Shown: in pieces, positions 3,331-36,714 of the stretch
How positions within the stretch are numbered: the first letter of the stretch is position 1
Layout of the letters: each line of letters begins with the position of its first letter
IMG/VR virus record: IMGVR_UViG_2547132418_000017
Length of the DNA: 36,714 bases
Origin: a virus
Taxonomy: Duplodnaviria; Heunggongvirae; Uroviricota; Caudoviricetes
Strand: one strand, 5' to 3'
Program-made: the position numbers and the translations under genes
Notes under the pieces: model-generated
What the model saw: the letters and a program-made list of their open reading frames with translations, nothing else
The model's database searches: none
Told to the model about the DNA's origin: nothing

Positions 3331-4224
3331 ATGAGTTTAATTACGCAATTAAATGACGTAATGGCCCGTCGCGGCTATACGCAGACCCACGTCGCCCGTG
3401 CTATTGGTCGTAGCAGCGCCGTTATCAACCAGTATTTACAGGGTAAATATCAGGGCGATATGGCTGATATTGAAGAACGCATTTCTGCCTTCGTGACCCG
3501 TGAGCGGGAAAAGGAAAACAGCCGCCGTATTAAAGCAAAGTTTGTGACCACCGGTATGGCTGCCAAAGGACTGGAGGTGCTGGCCTACGCTCACCTGGAA
3601 TGTGAAATCTGTGTGCTGTATGGCGCGGCAGGTCTTGGCAAAACAATGATTCTGCGTGAATACGCCTCCAGAAACCGGGATGCGGTCCTGATTGAGGCTG
3701 ACCCGGGCTATACAGCCAGGACACTGCTTGAGGAGTTGTGCCGCCAGCTGGGGGTAAAGGTTCGCGGCAACATTCACGAACTGATTGATGCCTGTGTGCG
3801 CGAACTGCGTGATTCCGGTCGTCTGCTGATGGTGGACGAGGCTGAACTGCTCCCCTATCGCGCACTGGAGGTTCTGCGCCGTCTGCATGACAAAGCGGGT
3901 ATCGGGGTTGTCCTGGCGGGTATGCCTCGTCTTCTGATTAATCTCAAGGGGCGTCGTGGTGAATTTGCGCAGTTATACAGCCGCGTGGCGCTGGCGCTTA
4001 ACCTGGGCGACATGCTGGCGCAGGAAGATTTTAACCAGATAGCCACCGGGCTGATGCCGGAAGCAGCAGAACGGGAAATCAGCGAGGCGCTTTACGCACG
4101 CTCGCTGGGTAATGCCCGCCGCCTGTTCAAACTGGCGCGTGGTGTGTACCGGATTTGTGATATCAGCGATGCGCCGGTCAGTGTGCAGGCCATTGATAAA
4201 TTCGCAGAAATGTTAATTCACTGA
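3331..4224 (+). CDS. Mu-type transposition ATPase B, 297 aa
   Basis: Walker A GAAGLGKT, Walker B LLMVDEAE, N-terminal HTH-like segment; immediately downstream of transposase A. Confidence 0.9.
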   Translation: MSLITQLNDVMARRGYTQTHVARAIGRSSAVINQYLQGKYQGDMADIEERISAFVTREREKENSRRIKAKFVTTGMAAKGLEVLAYAHLECEICVLYGAAGLGKTMILREYASRNRDAVLIEADPGYTARTLLEELCRQLGVKVRGNIHELIDACVRELRDSGRLLMVDEAELLPYRALEVLRRLHDKAGIGVVLAGMPRLLINLKGRRGEFAQLYSRVALALNLGDMLAQEDFNQIATGLMPEAAEREISEALYARSLGNARRLFKLARGVYRICDISDAPVSVQAIDKFAEMLIH

Positions 4225-4463
4225 TGGAGAACAAGATGATGGACAAGCAGACCATTAACGCCGTCCGTTCCCGTGCCCGTGTGGCCATCCACACCACCGG
4301 CGGTCGCGTAACTGGGCAACATCACCGTTTACCTGTGGTTTATGCCTGCCCGCCCGTGGGCGGCCCTGTATGGCCGGTAACGGAAATCATCCAGACATTC
4401 AGCGGCCTGCGCCGCGTGGTGAAAACGTCCTGTATCGACGGCTGCACCGTCGTATGGCAATAA
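4224..4463 (+). CDS. Hypothetical protein, 79 aa
   Basis: ATG overlaps the transposase B stop (TGATGG), suggesting translational coupling; no recognisable family. Confidence 0.45.
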   Translation: MENKMMDKQTINAVRSRARVAIHTTGGRVTGQHHRLPVVYACPPVGGPVWPVTEIIQTFSGLRRVVKTSCIDGCTVVWQ

Positions 4464-4475
4464 GAGGAAATCAGA

Positions 4476-4691
4476 ATGGCGGTTAAGTTAGAAGTAATTA
4501 TCTATACCGATGAAAAAGGCTGTGTTTTAACCCAGACCACGGGGAGTTATTCGAAGGACGGAGCTTCCGAAAAGGAGTTTCAGGTGGCAACAAGATTACA
4601 TGATGCTATCAAGGAAACGCTCAGAAATGACTATAACGGCGTGAATCTTTTTTCTGAAAATGTTGCGCCTCGCGCACATAACACACATTAA
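4476..4691 (+). CDS. Hypothetical protein, 71 aa
   Basis: ORF with SD AGAGGAAA upstream; no recognisable family. Confidence 0.45.
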   Translation: MAVKLEVIIYTDEKGCVLTQTTGSYSKDGASEKEFQVATRLHDAIKETLRNDYNGVNLFSENVAPRAHNTH

Positions 4692-4720
4692 TCTGTAAAT
4701 ATCACTGAGGTAATTTAATT

Positions 4721-5365
4721 ATGACTACTGAAAATAAAGTTAAGCAATACACGAAAACTCAAGCGCCTGAAGGTTACTGGGTGGATGCCCGTGGCGTAAT
4801 GACACCTGAAAGCCTTATCAAAGATATTGACCGCGACCGCGAGCAGCTGGTCGGTGAGCTTGTGGAGATGGTGATTACTGCCTCCGCCTCACTGCGGGAA
4901 CTGAAACTGCGTGCGTTTGGTGATATCCAGGCATTTATTGACCTGTCGGCAGAGAAATACGGTGCTGTGAAAGGCGGCAAAAAAGGGAATATCACGCTTT
5001 ACAGCTTTGACGGGCGTTACAAGATTCAGCGCGCCATGCAGGACCGTATCGCGTTTGATGAACGCATTCAGACCGCGAAGGCGCTGATTGACGACTGTCT
5101 GGCTGACTGGACGGAAGGTGCGCGCCCTGAAATTAAAGCCATCATCAGTGAGGCATTCAGCACGGACAAGGAAGGCAACATCAACACCGGGCGCGTTCTG
5201 GCCCTGCGTCGCCTCGAAATTGAGGACGAACGCTGGAATAACGCCATGTCGCTGATTGGTGAAGCCGTCCAGGTGATTGGCAGCAAGAGCTATATTCGTG
5301 TGTATGAGCGCGTTGGTGATTCTGATGAATACCGCGCAATCCCTCTTGATATTGCAGGGGTTTAA
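4721..5365 (+). CDS. DUF3164-like protein, 214 aa
   Basis: Resembles the DUF3164 family common in Mu-like prophages (recalled, not searched); sits where Mu carries gam. Confidence 0.6.
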   Translation: MTTENKVKQYTKTQAPEGYWVDARGVMTPESLIKDIDRDREQLVGELVEMVITASASLRELKLRAFGDIQAFIDLSAEKYGAVKGGKKGNITLYSFDGRYKIQRAMQDRIAFDERIQTAKALIDDCLADWTEGARPEIKAIISEAFSTDKEGNINTGRVLALRRLEIEDERWNNAMSLIGEAVQVIGSKSYIRVYERVGDSDEYRAIPLDIAGV

Positions 5366-5366
5366 T

Positions 5367-5600
5367 ATGCATCAGAATATCAAAGAGTACAGAGCCGGAA
5401 ATAGTTGCGCGGCGTATTCGCTGGGCGCGTCCAGAGCAGAACAACGCGGCGATTATGACGAGGCAGAAAAACTGTGGCGCAAGGCAGCGCAAAGCCCGTG
5501 TAGCACCCTGCGCCGCACCTGGGCTGAACATCGTGCGGAGTTCTGCGCTAACGCTCACCTGAAGGGATGGAGGCCACGCCATGAATGCGAAGAACTTTAA
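5367..5600 (+). CDS. Hypothetical protein, 77 aa
   Basis: ATG at 5367 one nt after the upstream stop, SD AGGGG 5356..5360; the longer form from 5277 overlaps the previous gene and is less likely. Confidence 0.4.
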   Translation: MHQNIKEYRAGNSCAAYSLGASRAEQRGDYDEAEKLWRKAAQSPCSTLRRTWAEHRAEFCANAHLKGWRPRHECEEL

Positions 5601-5772
5601 TAAGTTATATCCGCTTGGTACTCGTTTCATGCACATTGCACATCAGGCGGTGCGTGGTGGGCGGGTGGTAAAAACTGTTGCACCGGCCAGAGATTTTAAA
5701 TGTGGTTGTGTGATTGAAATTAATGTCGAGCCTTATTTCGTAAAAGTCGAAACACTGAAAGCACCGCATTAA
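5581..5772 (+). CDS. Hypothetical protein, 63 aa
   Basis: ORF overlapping the end of the previous gene; followed by the AT-rich spacer and hairpin. Confidence 0.35.
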   Translation: MNAKNFNKLYPLGTRFMHIAHQAVRGGRVVKTVAPARDFKCGCVIEINVEPYFVKVETLKAPH

Positions 5773-31274: not shown

Positions 31275-31847
31275 ATGAATATGGTCGATTTATTTCGCGC
31301 CATGCTGCCACCTGTCAGTTATGACCCGAACGGGAAATATATTTCCGCAGAACTGACCGCCGAGGCTGACGTCATGGAGGCCGTGAAGGCCTCAGCGGCG
31401 CGCGTTCTGGCACAAATCACCCCGTTGCAGGCATCGATGACGCTGTCCGACTGGGAGCGCGTGTACGGTGTTGTCCCCCGTGAAGGGGCAACACAACAGG
31501 AGCGGCGGCAGAATATTCTGGTAAAAATGGCAGCCACGGGCGGGCTGTCAATCCCTTACTTTAAGAGCCTTGCCGCCAGTCTGGGCTATACCATCACCAT
31601 TACGGAGCCGCGACCGTTCCGGGTGGGGATAAACCGCTGTGGTGACCATCTGCTGATACCGGAAATCCGCTGGGCGTGGCAGGTCAACGTTATCGGGACA
31701 AAAACACCGGTCTACCGGTTCAGAACGGGTGCATCGGCAACCGGTGAACCGCTGACGGCCTTCGGGGAATCCATTTTAGAAAACACGTTTAAAGACCTTA
31801 AACCGGCTTTTACAGACTGTTATTTCACGTATGAGGTGGAGGAATAA
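31275..31847 (+). CDS. Baseplate/tail protein (Mu gp48-like), 190 aa
   Basis: Position between J-like gene and tail fibre. Confidence 0.6.
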   Translation: MNMVDLFRAMLPPVSYDPNGKYISAELTAEADVMEAVKASAARVLAQITPLQASMTLSDWERVYGVVPREGATQQERRQNILVKMAATGGLSIPYFKSLAASLGYTITITEPRPFRVGINRCGDHLLIPEIRWAWQVNVIGTKTPVYRFRTGASATGEPLTAFGESILENTFKDLKPAFTDCYFTYEVEE

Positions 31848-32650
31848 TGCGGAATTTAATGCTCCCGGTGAATACGCCGGATAAGTTATTTCATGACGGT
31901 GACCCGACTCAGGGAATTGAGGGAACCATCGTTACTGCTGAATTTATGAATAATCATCAGGCGGCAACGCGTGATTTGCAGCAGGAGGTGATTAACGTCC
32001 TTAAAGAGGCCGGCGTCACCCCTGACCCGGAAAAACAAAACCAGCTGGTTGAGGCGCTGACCTCGTTTATTGGTCAGAAAGTCCCGGATGCATCACTGAC
32101 GCAAAAAGGCGTGGTGCAGCTTAACAGTGCTGTTAACAGTGAATCAGAAACAGAAGCAGCTACGCCAAAAGCGGTCAAGATTGCGATGGATAACGCAAAC
32201 GCCAGACTGGCAAAAGACCGTAACGGCGCAGACATCCCGAATAAACAATTGTTTCTGGATAACATCGGCGGTGCGCCGAAAACGCGCAAAATTAACAATA
32301 TGCCCCTGACGTCGGATATCACCATCAACAACATCGGCGGCAACGCCGGAACGGCAACCCGACTTCAGACGGCCCGCAGGATTAACAATGTGCTGTTTGA
32401 TGGCACCAGGGATATCACCATCAGTACCACCGATTCCGGCGCGGTGCGTAATTTTCAGTACACCAATGAGGTGTTTCACAACCCGGGTGGTAACGAAATC
32501 ACCTGGACGTTCCGCGCGCCTTCAGGCTGTCAGTTGTCGGGAATTTATGTCCAGGATACAGGAAGAGGTTCTGCGGATAACATCGGAGGTGTGTATTACA
32601 AACAAGCCCAGATTTATATCAATGGCGGATGGCGCGCGGTATCCGGCTAA
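31847..32650 (+). CDS. Tail fibre protein 1, 267 aa
   Basis: Contains the tail-fibre motif TQKGVVQLNSAVNSESETEAATPKAVK; followed by a tail fibre assembly gene. Confidence 0.75.
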   Translation: MRNLMLPVNTPDKLFHDGDPTQGIEGTIVTAEFMNNHQAATRDLQQEVINVLKEAGVTPDPEKQNQLVEALTSFIGQKVPDASLTQKGVVQLNSAVNSESETEAATPKAVKIAMDNANARLAKDRNGADIPNKQLFLDNIGGAPKTRKINNMPLTSDITINNIGGNAGTATRLQTARRINNVLFDGTRDITISTTDSGAVRNFQYTNEVFHNPGGNEITWTFRAPSGCQLSGIYVQDTGRGSADNIGGVYYKQAQIYINGGWRAVSG

Positions 32651-32664
32651 TTAAGGAGAAAATA

Positions 32665-33189
32665 ATGGAACTCAGAAACGTTTCGCGTTATTACCCGGAA
32701 GAGATGCCTTATGGTGAAAACATTCAGTATTTTCGCAGTGAAGACGGACAGGATTTTTATGAATCACTGGATAAATTCACGAAGAAATACAAATTGTGTA
32801 TTCACCCTGAAAGCGGCGTGATTTATTCAATGGCGGAAGACGTGTCCCGTCTTTATCCGGCTGGCTTCACCATTGTGGAAGTGGATGAACTGCCGGAAGA
32901 TTTTGGCATTGAAGCCAGCTGGTATTACAAAGACGGCGAAGTGCTGCCGGTTCCTGTTGATTACTCGCGACTGGCAGAAAAAAAACGCCAGAGCCTGCTG
33001 AATGAAGCGAAGGACATCACCTCAGACTGGAAAACCGAGCTGGAGCTGGGCACCATCAGCGACGATTACAAAGCCCGTCTTACGCAGTGGATGGCATATA
33101 TCAAAGCGGTAAAGGCGCTGGATTTAAGTCAGGTCAGTGACGAATCCTCCTTTTATTTAATTCAGTGGCCTGAAAAACCTGACGTGTAA
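32665..33189 (+). CDS. Tail fibre assembly chaperone 1 (Tfa/U-like), 174 aa
   Basis: ATG 32665 with SD AAGGAG; C-terminal LTQWMAYIKAVKALDLSQV...IQWPEKP typical of Tfa proteins. Confidence 0.8.
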   Translation: MELRNVSRYYPEEMPYGENIQYFRSEDGQDFYESLDKFTKKYKLCIHPESGVIYSMAEDVSRLYPAGFTIVEVDELPEDFGIEASWYYKDGEVLPVPVDYSRLAEKKRQSLLNEAKDITSDWKTELELGTISDDYKARLTQWMAYIKAVKALDLSQVSDESSFYLIQWPEKPDV

Positions 33190-33196
33190 AACAATA

Positions 33197-33222
33197 ACGG
33201 TCGCTGTCTGGCGACCGTTTTC
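33197..33222 (+). terminator. Rho-independent terminator between fibre module 1 and fibre module 2
   Basis: Stem ACGGTCGC / GCGACCGT (8 bp), loop TGTCTG, followed by TTTT. Confidence 0.6.
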
Positions 33223-33236
33223 AGTTCAGAGGCTTT

Positions 33237-36200
33237 ATGTCTGTATTAATTTCAGGTGCGCTGATTAATGGCGCTGGCGTTCCGATGGCGGAATGCAAAA
33301 TTTATTTAGATGCACTGGTTAATACCAGTGAAGTGGTTATTGAATCATTTGCGGTTATTGAAACCGATGCGGCGGGACAGTATGCCTTTGAAGCACAAAA
33401 AGGCAAATACACCGTACACATCAAGCAAAAGAACGGCCCTAAGTGCTGTGTGGGTGACATTTCGGTTTACGAAGATTCAAAGCCCGGCACGCTGAACGAC
33501 TTTCTGACTGCCCTTGATGAAGGCGATTTAAAGCCGGATGTAGTGAAACGCTTTGAGGAAATGGTGGCGCAGGCGCAGCAGAGCGCGGAAGCGGCAGCGA
33601 AAAGCGAACAACTGGCCGGGCAACACGTCGCTGATGCGCAGAAGATAAAGGCAGACTGTCAGACGCTGGCGGATAACGTAGCGCAGAACGCAGAAGACGT
33701 TGCTGAAGACAAAAAGCAGGTGGCGCTGCTGGCATCATCTGCCACACAGGATGCGGCCCGCGCAGAGCAGGCGGTCAAAGATGCCGACACGATAGTCCAG
33801 AAAGCGGTCGATAAACTCGGTGAAGCCGCAACGCTGAGCGGCGAGGCAAAGGCCAGTGCAGAAGCGGCAGCAAAAAGCGAGCAGGGCGCAAAACAGCACA
33901 GGGACGAGGCGCAACGGATAGTTGATGACCTGAAGGGAAGCAGTGCTTCCACGACAGAAAAAGGCCTGGTGCAACTCTGTAGTGATACGGACAACGACAG
34001 CGAAGAACTGGCAGCCACACCGAAGGCCGTCAAAACCGTCATGGACGAGACGAAAACAAAAGCGCCGCTGGACAGCCCGGCATTCACCGGCACGCCCACC
34101 ACACCAACCCCACCGGACGATGCTGCCGGTCTGGAAACAGCGAACGCGGCATTTGTCCGCAAACTGCTCGCTGCACTGGTTGACTCGTCACCGGAGGCCC
34201 TGGACACGCTGAACGAGCTGGCAGCGGCGCTGGGAAATGACCCGAATTTTGCGACGACAGTCACCAAAGCACTGGCAGGTAAACAGCCACTCAGTGACGT
34301 GTTAACCGCAATCAGTAATCTGGAAGAACGGGCAGATAATCTTCTGTGCTTTAATCAGGACGGAAATGCTTCACTGTCTCCACTGTCAGAAAAAGCCCGG
34401 TCACTGCTGGCACAGGCCACAGTGGAAGCTATGCGCAATGAGCTTGAGCTGAAAAGCGCAGCGGTAATGGATATTCAGACAGACATTCACGACAGCACGA
34501 AAGGCCGCATTGCGCTTCCCGGTGCGTATGGTTACGGAATGACGGACGCCGGAGCGCGTTCAATTATTGCCAGCGATATGGCGACTGTAGCCAGAACCGC
34601 TCACAACCTGCACCCGGGACGCTATTACACCTTTGCCACACGAACGGAAGAAACAACCGGGATAACAGAAATTATCTGGCTGGATAATGGCCGGGCCGAC
34701 AAAACCAGCCAGACAGCAACAAAGCTGGTTCTGTTTTTTGGAAAAGACGGACGGATTCTTATGACCGTTCGTGGCGATAATATCTCCGCCCCGGTCACCT
34801 GGACGAATCTGACGCCACAACTTGGCAATGCAGCACAGAAGGATGCGCAGGAGAATATTTACGACCGCACCGAAGGCCGTCTGGCGATTCCCGGCATGTT
34901 TGGATTCGGGAAAGTATTTTTCATCGGCGACAGGACCGAGTTTAAAACAGAGGCCGATTTTCTCCGCTGGGTAAAAACGGCAAATCCCGGACGCTATGCC
35001 GTTTATGCAGATACAAATGCGGTAATACAGGGCGTGCTGTTCAAGGGTACCGTTGAAATTATCTGGCCGGAACCTCAAATCAGCCATGATACGGCATATG
35101 TGGCCAAAATCATTATTTTTTACGGTATTAACGGCCATATTTATTACAATCGCTACTGGACTACCGGAGATGGTTATCTGGTTGGCTGGGAAAACCTGAA
35201 GGTTGATGAGGCTTCACTCCGGGCACTGATTGAAACCCGCGCGCCACTGAACAGCCCGGCACTGACCGGAACGCCGTCCACGCCAACACCACAGGATGAT
35301 GCAGCAGGCACTGAAATAGCCAATGCGGCGTTTGTCCGCAAACTGCTCGCCACGCTGGTTGGCTCATCACCGGAAGCCCTGGACACGCTGAACGAGCTGG
35401 CAGCGGCACTGGGCAATGACCCGAACTTTGCGACAACCGTCACTAATGCACTGGCAGGTAAACAGCCGCTTAATGACGTGTTAACGGCTGTCAGCAAGAT
35501 AACACCGGAAGAAAACACACTGCCCTATTTCAGTGCAGATGGCAGGATTTTACTGGCGCAGTTGTCAGAAAAAGCCCGCGCATTACTGGCACTGGACACA
35601 CCTGAAGCCATGCGCACGGAGCTTGAACTGAAAGCGGCTGCGACGATGGAACCCCAGAGCGATATCCGTGACCGCACACCGGGCAGACTGGCGCTGTCCG
35701 GCATGCATGGCTTTGGTCAGGCATTCAGCAGTGCCGACGCTCTGACATTTAACGGGCAGGCCGATTTTGTTGAATGGCTGAAAAAGGCCGCCCCGGGGCG
35801 TTATGCGGTCAGTATTGCGGACTCTTCCATGCTGCTGGTTGGCACCAAGAAATTTAACGGCACCATTGATGTGATGTGGTCGCCCTTTGATAACGATGAG
35901 TCGGACACAATACGAAAATTCAAAACACTGCTGTGTTTTAACCAGTATTACGAAGGTGAGCATAGTATTCATTTCCTGACTTACCGCTTTAGTGGAAACA
36001 ACTGGAATGCAACAGTAAGCCCTGTCATTTACGACGGCGATTCGCTGGCGTTCTTACTGTCCCGGACAGCAGGCTCAGGCTCATATTTCAAATACCCGGC
36101 AGTGGGTGTTCCAGTGCTGGCTGTTTATCGCGGAACAACTTTCGGGGATAAAGAAATCAATATTGGCCTGGGTGATGTGGTGCAGGGGTCACAACTGGGC

Positions 36201-36371
36201 GGAGTTAATCTTTCGTGCTTAATATCTTCTGCTGGGGTTGGCTCCTACAATTCCGCACCGAGTGCAGGAGCTACAGGGTACACTTTCCCGGGGCGTTATA
36301 TGGCGCTATCCGGGGTCAGGGACTCTAAAGGAATAACCGGTCGTATCTGCCTGTTTGTGCGCATCGAGTAA
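33237..36371 (+). CDS. Large side-tail-fibre-like protein with internally duplicated Stf-like module, 1044 aa
   Basis: Two copies of ...SPA(F/L)TGTP(T/S)TPTP.DDAAG.E.ANAAFVRKLLA...SPEALDTLNELAAALGNDPNFATTVT.ALAGKQP..., resembling the conserved region of lambda Stf; N-terminal Ala/Lys-rich region. Confidence 0.85.
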   Translation: MSVLISGALINGAGVPMAECKIYLDALVNTSEVVIESFAVIETDAAGQYAFEAQKGKYTVHIKQKNGPKCCVGDISVYEDSKPGTLNDFLTALDEGDLKPDVVKRFEEMVAQAQQSAEAAAKSEQLAGQHVADAQKIKADCQTLADNVAQNAEDVAEDKKQVALLASSATQDAARAEQAVKDADTIVQKAVDKLGEAATLSGEAKASAEAAAKSEQGAKQHRDEAQRIVDDLKGSSASTTEKGLVQLCSDTDNDSEELAATPKAVKTVMDETKTKAPLDSPAFTGTPTTPTPPDDAAGLETANAAFVRKLLAALVDSSPEALDTLNELAAALGNDPNFATTVTKALAGKQPLSDVLTAISNLEERADNLLCFNQDGNASLSPLSEKARSLLAQATVEAMRNELELKSAAVMDIQTDIHDSTKGRIALPGAYGYGMTDAGARSIIASDMATVARTAHNLHPGRYYTFATRTEETTGITEIIWLDNGRADKTSQTATKLVLFFGKDGRILMTVRGDNISAPVTWTNLTPQLGNAAQKDAQENIYDRTEGRLAIPGMFGFGKVFFIGDRTEFKTEADFLRWVKTANPGRYAVYADTNAVIQGVLFKGTVEIIWPEPQISHDTAYVAKIIIFYGINGHIYYNRYWTTGDGYLVGWENLKVDEASLRALIETRAPLNSPALTGTPSTPTPQDDAAGTEIANAAFVRKLLATLVGSSPEALDTLNELAAALGNDPNFATTVTNALAGKQPLNDVLTAVSKITPEENTLPYFSADGRILLAQLSEKARALLALDTPEAMRTELELKAAATMEPQSDIRDRTPGRLALSGMHGFGQAFSSADALTFNGQADFVEWLKKAAPGRYAVSIADSSMLLVGTKKFNGTIDVMWSPFDNDESDTIRKFKTLLCFNQYYEGEHSIHFLTYRFSGNNWNATVSPVIYDGDSLAFLLSRTAGSGSYFKYPAVGVPVLAVYRGTTFGDKEINIGLGDVVQGSQLGGVNLSCLISSAGVGSYNSAPSAGATGYTFPGRYMALSGVRDSKGITGRICLFVRIE

Positions 36372-36384
36372 CGGGGAATAAAAC

Positions 36385-36714
36385 ATGAAAATCAGAGCGG
36401 TAAAGGGCATCAGAAACGCCCATTATCTTGAAAATGGTGCGGTTGACTGCGAGGTGTTATTTGAAGGTGAAACGGAATTCGTCCCGTATACCGCCATGCA
36501 GGATGATACCGCACCGACAGGCCAGCGCATCTGGGAAGAGTTGCAGAACGGCAAATGGGGCGAAATCGCCCCTTTCACTGTCACGCCGGAACTTATCGCC
36601 GCGGCGAAGGATGCCAAAAAGCAGGAAATCGAGGCATGGCGCACAGAACAGGAAGCACTGCCGTTCACCTTTGAATGGAACGGTCGCACCTGGAACGCTG
36701 GCCCCGACTCAATG
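36385..36714 (+). CDS. Partial ORF downstream of fibre 2, probable fibre accessory/assembly protein (runs off window end)
   Basis: ATG 36385 after SD-like GGGG; open to the last base of the window (110 codons); not clearly lambda-Tfa-like. Confidence 0.4.
   Translation, partial: MKIRAVKGIRNAHYLENGAVDCEVLFEGETEFVPYTAMQDDTAPTGQRIWEELQNGKWGEIAPFTVTPELIAAAKDAKKQEIEAWRTEQEALPFTFEWNGRTWNAGPDSM

Follow-up and report, generated by a model that had tools for sequence, protein, structure and literature searches.

A conserved shaft module used twice, and its probable role as a recombination joint, in the long tail fibre of a Mu-like prophage

Tail fibres set the host range of phages, and it is chiefly they that are altered when phages and tailocins are retargeted. 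The long tail-fibre gene of a Mu-like prophage of Escherichia coli (Caudoviricetes; IMG/VR record IMGVR_UViG_2547132418_000017; the whole stretch of 36,714 nucleotides (nt) is hereafter called the window) contains the same coding segment twice, which raises the questions of what this segment is, how the fibre is built around it, and whether recombination between its two copies deletes or exchanges the part that lies between them. A reading made from the letters of the DNA alone (the sequence-only reading) had proposed that two distal modules of the lambda Stf type were fused in series, and that the repeats could support such recombination. The gene occupies positions 33237..36371 on the + strand, the strand of all features located below unless stated otherwise, and encodes 1044 amino acids (aa) in the list of open reading frames (ORFs); it contains the Pfam families PF08400 and PF03406 and matches phrog_2636, "tail fiber protein", with an E-value (E) of 7e-288. 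The best explanation, and in our judgment a probable one, is a modular side tail fibre in which the conserved core of a repeated shaft module, termed A, acts as a recombination joint on an evolutionary scale.

The window contained one family of direct repeats, at 34062..34318 and 35241..35497, each copy 257 nt long and the two 84% identical. The two homologous segments of ~255 base pairs (bp) that had been claimed were thus correct in place and kind, with coordinates that were right to within three bases. The distance from start to start was 1179 nt, or 393 codons, and the copies are therefore in frame. Comparison of the gene with itself (blastn) widened the match to gene nt 826-1218 and 2005-2397 (397 nt, 77.6%), and at the protein level aa 273-419 and aa 666-812 shared 72% identity over 147 aa (segment blastp, E 1e-64). 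The longest exact match between the copies was 32 bp (34197..34228 and 35376..35407), encoding ALDTLNELAAA, and this 32-mer was found exactly twice in the window and in none of 100 shuffles. The repeat does not stem from chance or low complexity, as shown by the self-match (E 6e-87) and by the two occurrences of the 32-mer against none expected; the similarity spans ~400 nt or 147 aa and is not of low complexity. The divergence of the copies was 16% over the 257 nt and 26% over the whole A module. The more diverged segment that had been noticed after each repeat is real; it comprises the A module's distal part and the beginning of a ~125-aa domain, termed D. The description of the repeat as a duplicated lambda-Stf-like module also held, as a hidden Markov model (HMM) of A hit lambda orf-314, with the whole module recognisable when the PaPa frameshift is bridged. 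Within the repeat, a core of ~97 nt (34169-34265, likewise 35348-35444) encodes SSPEALDTLNELAAALGNDPNFATTV and gave blastn matches of 75-83% DNA identity in 289 Mycobacterium phage records (minor tail protein genes), 37 Gordonia, 11 Microbacterium, and 27 Klebsiella records, and several Yersinia and Burkholderia phages. These matches likely reflect a widely conserved peptide and shared GC-rich codons rather than recent transfer.

The fibre could be parsed into an N-terminal anchor, a rod, a Phage_fiber_2 repeat, A1, D1, D2, A2, D3, and a variable tip, in that order. The anchor is of the lambda-Stf-N type (aa 1-133, 33237..33635; PF08400 E 3e-48; 9e7m in the Protein Data Bank (PDB), E 1.4e-16). 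It is followed by a proximal rod rich in Ala, Gln, and Glu (aa 134-237, 33636..33947; segment blastp and a 29-mer DNA repeat), presumably a coiled coil as judged from its composition and the lambda Stf model, and by the Phage_fiber_2 repeat (aa 238-277, 33948..34067; PF03406 E 9e-16), which matches Mu fibre S in 5yvq/8ju3. The first shaft module of ~139 aa, A1 (aa 273-411, 34053..34469), is the counterpart of the "hinge + distal coiled coil" of lambda Stf and is highly conserved in homologues, as is D1 (aa 412-535, 34470..34841). D2 (aa 536-665, 34842..35231), a candidate site of lateral receptor contact, has its hypervariable stretch at aa ~586-645. The second shaft module, A2 (aa 666-804, 35232..35648), has a conserved core and an allelic distal part at aa 751-795, and leads to D3 (aa 805-945, 35649..36071; segment comparison and module parse) and to the C-terminal tip (aa 946-1044 and the stop codon, 36072..36371). 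The tip is the most variable module, with many allele classes and a conserved end (...LFVRIE); homologous tips occur in the Rac-SA53 and STEC308 variants, and the tip is presumably the main receptor-binding end.

The three D copies were 27-37% identical in pairwise comparison (E 1e-10 to 1e-21) and had motifs in common that include D..GR.A.PG..G(F/Y)G and PGRY. The sequence-only reading had missed this second repeat family, and the twofold domain that it implied after the repeats is in fact present three times. The idea of two distal modules in series survives in part: the A-type repeat is real and each "half" occurs in nature, but the first of the two modules has no tip. The protein is better seen as an alternation of shaft (A) and knob (D) modules that ends in one tip. 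A short repeat was also seen around the proximal rod, where aa 112-140 resemble aa 203-231 (33582-33610 and 33855-33883; 29 nt at 86%, 24-29 aa at 62-67%). The length of the rod among homologues ranged from ~76 to 210 aa.

The 1044-aa fibre was 100% identical to a database protein (P0001) of Escherichia coli MP020980.1, named "phage tail fiber repeat family protein", and is catalogued in hundreds of genomes yet uncharacterised. All of the 120 closest protein clusters (79-100% identity; E. coli, E. marmotae, E. albertii, and Salmonella) kept two A and three D modules in the same positions, and a second search added 16 two-module clusters, giving a total of at least 136 clusters at 90% identity. 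A search of 1.84 billion representative proteins returned 16,152 relatives at E<=1e-3, and the best 150 representatives of these (50% clustering) were parsed with local HMMs. Among the best 150, the orders A-D, A-D-D, D-A-D, A-D-A-D, D-A-D-A-D, D-D, and A-A-A were found, as were arrays in which the first ~80 residues of A occur 2-13 times per protein (10 in P0144 and 13 in P0186). These parses show A to be a repeat unit of fibre shafts in general and D to be a mobile, knob-like domain. The arrangement is not an unusual fusion: it is kept in at least 136 clusters, and thousands of fibres combine A and D in many ways.

The two A copies have separate histories. Across the 120 clusters, the identity between A1 modules was at least 0.877 and that between A1 and A2 at most 0.755, and the A1-A2 identity inside one protein (median 0.710) was no higher than that across proteins; therefore, A1 and A2 are separate, positionally orthologous lineages that show no concerted evolution. 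Gene conversion or concerted evolution between the two was ruled out by the same A1-A1 and A1-A2 identities. Nei-Gojobori estimates for the A1 and A2 cores of the window gave 0.46-0.60 synonymous (dS) and 0.04-0.09 nonsynonymous (dN) substitutions per site, with a dN/dS of ~0.1, and the distal A parts were saturated at synonymous sites (dS ~1.5). These values indicate that the duplication or fusion is old and that both copies are under purifying selection. In a homozygosity profile of 116 homologues, variation peaked in the N-terminal anchor, in D2 (aa 586-645), in the distal part of A2 (aa 751-795), and in the tip (aa 961-1044), and A1 and D1 were nearly invariant. Variation of the anchor may reflect attachment to different baseplates.

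Comparison of natural alleles argues that recombination at the repeats does happen, on the evolutionary scale. The pPE4 fibre (gp69, 667 aa, one A) corresponds to Rac-SA53 tail3 (1061 aa, two A) minus exactly one period of 1182 nt. In a three-way alignment, the informative sites of pPE4 changed from A1-like to A2-like between gene nt ~968 and ~992, and the 32-bp identical stretch of the window (gene nt 961-992) lies at the same position. Another one-module fibre, the 628-aa protein P0271, was present in 93 index blocks of the collection. It is carried by a sister Mu-like prophage, L007, whose baseplate genes match those of the window at 93.5% identity over 4.7 kb and which occupies different chromosomal sites; the A module of P0271 is A1-like at its 5' end and A2-like at its 3' end, the two types being mixed at 34118-34277. 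Four one-module representatives (P0125, P0126, P0127, and P0129) differed in their switch points within the core, and therefore independent events are indicated. Among the 116 full-length two-module homologues, the allele classes of the variable part of D2 and of the distal part of A2 occurred in 29 combinations with 31 four-gamete quartets; this re-assortment points to in-register crossovers in the conserved A2 core as well. The proposal that the repeats support deletion or exchange is thus borne out by chimeric A1/A2 one-module alleles and by the length difference of one period, but only as a rare evolutionary event and not as an active switch, because the copies are 16% divergent, share at most 32 bp of perfect identity, and were never homogenised.

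Natural "half" fibres were found in both forms, namely N-A1-D1-D2-tip (STEC308, a 760-aa ORF) and N-A-D3-tip (P0271 and P0126 with 628 aa, and pPE4 gp69). A class of 758-761 aa that was considered as further A-D-D fibres of the STEC308 type was rejected, as its members are one-module fibres with a longer proximal rod. E. coli A36 (NZ_CP028739.1) carries two prophages with differing assemblies of the same modules, each followed by a DUF4376 gene: one fibre (L002, 3796-6939) is N-A-D-D-A-D-tip with 1047 aa, and the other (L010, 3774-5711) has an unrelated N-terminus followed by A-D1'-D3-tip, with 645 aa. This pair of prophages provides resident substrates for inter-prophage exchange.

Two of the compared records need a comment. 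The STEC308 fibre (L001, 3796-6078; NZ_CP091020.1) is annotated in RefSeq as a pseudogene "missing C-terminus" with a coding sequence at 3796-5760; its frame is open for 760 aa, and its tip (...LFVRFA) is related to that of Rac-SA53 (E 4e-7); the whole looks like an intact fibre of the order N-A-D-D-tip. The fibre region of "Actinobacillus phage vB_Apl-pPE4" (L004, PP818812.1) was 90-95% identical in DNA to that of Escherichia phage Rac-SA53, so that either the host label of pPE4 is doubtful or it is an E. coli-type prophage.

The structural nature of the modules was approached through sequence and model comparisons. Sequence searches of Pfam and NCBIfam found no family covering the A module, and its only relative by sequence in the PDB was 9d93 gp4, "tail collar fibers", with the core (aa 284-367, phmmer E 7e-10). 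In the structure paper of Ur-lambda (PMC12617516), the Stf residues 394-422 are modelled as a hinge of ~124 degrees and residues 423-525 as a "distal coiled coil"; by our own residue numbering, the two jointly would correspond to one A module. The region of D domains and tip (aa 412-1044) had no sequence match in Pfam, NCBIfam, or the PDB. For D2, AlphaFold2 was run with an alignment of 17 diverse D copies, and the resulting model had a predicted local distance difference test score (pLDDT) of 77 and a predicted template modelling score (pTM) of 0.72, with the first 15 residues disordered. Its structural neighbours were the receptor-binding proteins of phi812, phage K gp144, the AS12 tailspike, the Pa193 fibre, T4 gp34, phi11 gp45, the R2 pyocin fibre, and the Mu fibre, and the best neighbours included 6cl6 and 6cu2. 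Buth et al. (2018; PMC6116203) name phage K gp144, phi11 gp45, T4 gp34, and the AS12 tailspike as bearers of "knob-like" domains that resemble those of the R-pyocin fibres whose structures they solved. A Foldseek search of D2 against the PDB ranked the same targets at the top, none with significance (E 0.07-1); the assignment of D as a "knob-like domain" is therefore moderately supported.

Taken as a mechanism, the modular explanation would run as follows. The protein would form a trimeric side tail fibre of the Mu-like prophage, built from a string of reusable modules, and the two 257-nt repeats would be the conserved cores of A1 and A2, derived from an old, in-frame duplication and kept by purifying selection. 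Given its conservation in a very large number of fibres, the A core could act as a homologous joint on the evolutionary time-scale: in-register recombination at the core would swap distal parts between phages, and out-of-register recombination between A1 and A2 would remove or add a D1-D2-A block and give rise to one- and two-module alleles in one lineage. Loss of the block takes a single crossover within one gene, and gain a single crossover between phages. By the Ur-lambda Stf model, each A module may supply a hinge and a helical bundle. By analogy with R-type pyocins, the variable D2 knob and the C-terminal tip may be two spatially separated receptor-contact sites, with A2 as the spacer, perhaps a second hinge, between the lateral D2 site and the terminal one, and the DUF4376 protein may help assembly. 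A bolder extension, for which the odds are clearly against but which deserves mention as speculation, is a doubly jointed, two-site fibre in which register-shifted recombination at the A core would be a "valency and length switch" between a 628-aa one-site and a 1044-aa two-site form, beside tip swapping.

Several observations weigh against this interpretation. The switch zone in L007 relative to the window is noisy, as A1- and A2-type sites are mixed throughout it, and no near-identical phage pair that differs only by the block was found, the closest pairs being 90-95% identical. Loss and gain of the block fit the data alike as the direction of change between one- and two-module forms. On the structural side, the AlphaFold2 model of D3 with the tip reached a pLDDT of only 43, the view of A as a hinge with a helical bundle depends on an AlphaFold3-based model of lambda Stf together with our own residue mapping, and the receptor-contact roles of the domains are drawn from analogy.

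Could the repeats instead serve as an active switch, in which frequent deletion between A1 and A2 by RecA or a phage recombinase toggles a long and a short fibre and so produces phase variation of the host range? The geometry would allow it, as a crossover between direct, in-frame repeats at a distance of 1179 nt would leave an intact fibre of 651 aa, and one-module alleles are present in the same phage lineage; the 32-bp perfect match is also slightly longer than the ~23-27 bp that Shen and Huang are said to have given in 1986 as the minimum for RecA recombination in E. coli. On the other hand, copies that are diverged by 16% over 257 nt and by 26% over the module, with a dS of ~0.5 in the core, point to long independent evolution, and A1 and A2 were not homogenised in any of the 120 clusters. 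Furthermore, the one-module alleles are diverged, stable, and widespread, like P0271 with its 93 index blocks, rather than fresh deletions, and no dedicated recombinase gene adjoins the fibre gene. Such a switch is very unlikely. Next to no weight can be given to a dedicated diversification system, whether the template and variable repeats of a diversity-generating retroelement (DGR) or an invertible segment of the Mu G or P1 C type, even though tail-fibre genes are classic targets of both, Mu has its G segment, and the P1 gene S, which has the A core in common with the window fibre, ends in the invertible C segment. A DGR was ruled out by the mismatch spectrum, as the 41 mismatches had no adenine bias (copy 1: C13, A11, G10, T7; copy 2: A14, C9, G9, T9); both copies are also coding and under purifying selection. 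An invertible segment was ruled out since the repeats are direct, the only inverted repeat is a 20-nt match of 75% and chance quality, and the sister prophages have no invertase. In L007, host genes follow directly after the DUF4376 gene, with neither an invertase nor a reverse transcriptase; no invertase followed this gene in L007-L009, the window itself ending inside its DUF4376 gene. A Pfam scan of the large ORFs of the window, rather than of every small ORF, found only standard Mu-like genes and no reverse transcriptase.

A different alternative concerns the origin of the two-module form. The fibre may have arisen by fusion and not by duplication in situ, if an N-A1-D1-D2-tip and an N-A2-D3-tip gene were joined illegitimately at the D2/A2 boundary, in which case the repeats would be paralogues from different phages. 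Both of these "parental" architectures occur as intact genes, synonymous change between the distal parts of A1 and A2 has reached saturation, the junction of D to A is a frequent module boundary in unrelated fibres (P0123, P0131, P0143, P0149, and P0174), and the two A36 prophages combine the same modules differently. However, D1, D2, and D3 are mutual paralogues, which fits serial duplication equally, and the fusion is indistinguishable from an ancient duplication followed by divergence. We consider the fusion rather unlikely. It is compatible with the modular fibre and its A core as a joint, and the choice between the two origins leaves the present working of the gene unchanged.

The modular fibre can be compared with several known ones. 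With lambda Stf it has in common the N-terminal collar or anchor (163.7 bits for PF08400 against a cut-off of 26.6, in addition to the match to 9e7m of Ur-lambda), the Ala-rich proximal rod and Phage_fiber_2 motif, and the A module, whose HMM matched orf-314 with E 3e-12. Lambda has one A copy, which straddles the PaPa frameshift between orf-401 and orf-314, whereas the window fibre has two; the D HMM found no match in lambda, whereas the window fibre has three D domains; and the tip of lambda is gp37-like, to which the putative distal receptor-binding end of the window fibre is unrelated. The partner gene is Tfa (Caudo_TAP) in lambda and DUF4376/phrog_1141 in the window, and the virion is that of a siphovirus in lambda and of a Mu-like myovirus here. 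The likeness to lambda Stf is thus confined to the proximal two-fifths of the fibre (anchor, rod, Phage_fiber_2, and A) and does not extend distally. The gene S of P1 also has an internally duplicated A core, with a partial A followed by a full A in the HMM parse, and its record (NC_005856 / M81956) annotates "repeated elements" a0/a1 and b1/b2, of which b2 is 85% identical in DNA to the A2 core of the window. However, the copies in P1 are tandem units of 222 bp with nothing between them, whereas those of the window are 1179 nt apart with D1 and D2 in between; P1 varies its tip by Cin-mediated inversion, of which there is no sign in the window. In terms of the ~80-aa A core, the window fibre has two copies in one polypeptide, as two full A modules, and these are not arranged head to tail.

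The layout of the window fibre resembles that of R-type pyocin fibres, in which slender shafts and globular domains alternate, two tandem knobs being followed by a shaft and a C-terminal binding domain. In R-pyocin fibres (PA0620), diversity is found in the second knob and the C-terminal domain, and two binding sites ~100 angstroms apart were proposed to set the orientation of the fibre against the cell surface (Buth et al., 2018; PMC6116203). The diversity among the 116 homologues was likewise concentrated in the second knob (D2) and the C-terminal domain. In contrast, the pyocin shaft is iron-binding and that of the window fibre would be a helical A module, and the window fibre has a third knob before the tip. 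The resemblance to R-pyocin fibres is one of layout only.

Mosaic fibres that contain repeats, and recombination at motifs conserved among fibres, have long been known from the work of ~1989-1994 on P1, P2, and lambda. Mosaic tail fibres are reportedly exchanged by homologous recombination at conserved motifs, in work attributed to Haggard-Ljungquist and colleagues in 1992 and to Sandmeier and colleagues in 1992 and 1994. The window fibre agrees with this pattern in that conserved stretches of otherwise unrelated fibre genes are the crossover points, as seen here in the re-assortment of alleles and in the A1/A2 chimeras. It differs in that the joint is present twice in one gene, which allows register-shifted exchange that alters the number of modules. 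A literature search found no explicit description of the two-module architecture or of the fibre of Rac-SA53, and the Eligo base-editing paper, consulted on Stf insertion points, describes the design of its chimera and says nothing about repeats.

The gene is thus a real, ordinary modular tail fibre of an old, stable, and common build, and it reveals no new mechanism. It provides a clean natural example of one conserved module of ~140 aa that is both a structural spacer and a recombination joint. The main value of the case lies in a ready series of natural one- and two-module alleles (628, 760, and 1044 aa), a "before and after" set that shares one Mu-like backbone. For engineering, the A core and the D/A boundaries are tolerated junctions, and D2 and the tip are the segments to vary.

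The window itself is a Mu-like transposable prophage, with a MuA-type transposase, an AAA+ MuB-like protein, Mu portal, Mu F, sheath, and gp44/45/46/47/48-type baseplate genes in the Pfam scan of its large ORFs. A first fibre cassette lies upstream of the long fibre gene (31847..33189) and consists of a 267-aa Phage_fiber_2 fibre and a Caudo_TAP assembly protein (ORF list and Pfam). Downstream, the 5' part of the DUF4376/phrog_1141 gene (36385..36714) runs off the end of the window. This gene was a constant neighbour of the fibre type in E. coli A36, STEC308, Rac-SA53, pPE4, and L007, and its product is presumed to be an assembly chaperone or accessory protein. E. coli prophages and the phage records Rac-SA53 and pPE4 had the same gene order, with fibre, Tfa, long fibre, and DUF4376. 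One prophage therefore carries two fibre cassettes in series, a short fibre with Caudo_TAP and a long fibre of the lambda-Stf-N type with DUF4376, and the presence of a siphovirus-type Stf anchor on a contractile-tail phage raises the question of its docking site on the baseplate.

A scan of 32500-36714 for promoters and terminators gave nothing beyond the expectation from shuffled sequence. Within the short fibre gene, a 23-nt direct repeat (83%; 32314-32336 and 32410-32432, 96 nt apart) encodes DITINNIG and DITISTTD, and is perhaps a small internal peptide repeat, perhaps a chance match. Two antisense ORFs on the - strand, 33659-34267 (202 aa) and 35174-35518 (114 aa), overlap both repeats and are most likely spurious; they resemble each other because the repeat is duplicated, and the opposite strand holds a well-supported coding frame. 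Many homologues of the fibre (P0014-P0109) are named "shikimate transporter" in NCBI/nr, which is evidently a propagated mis-annotation.

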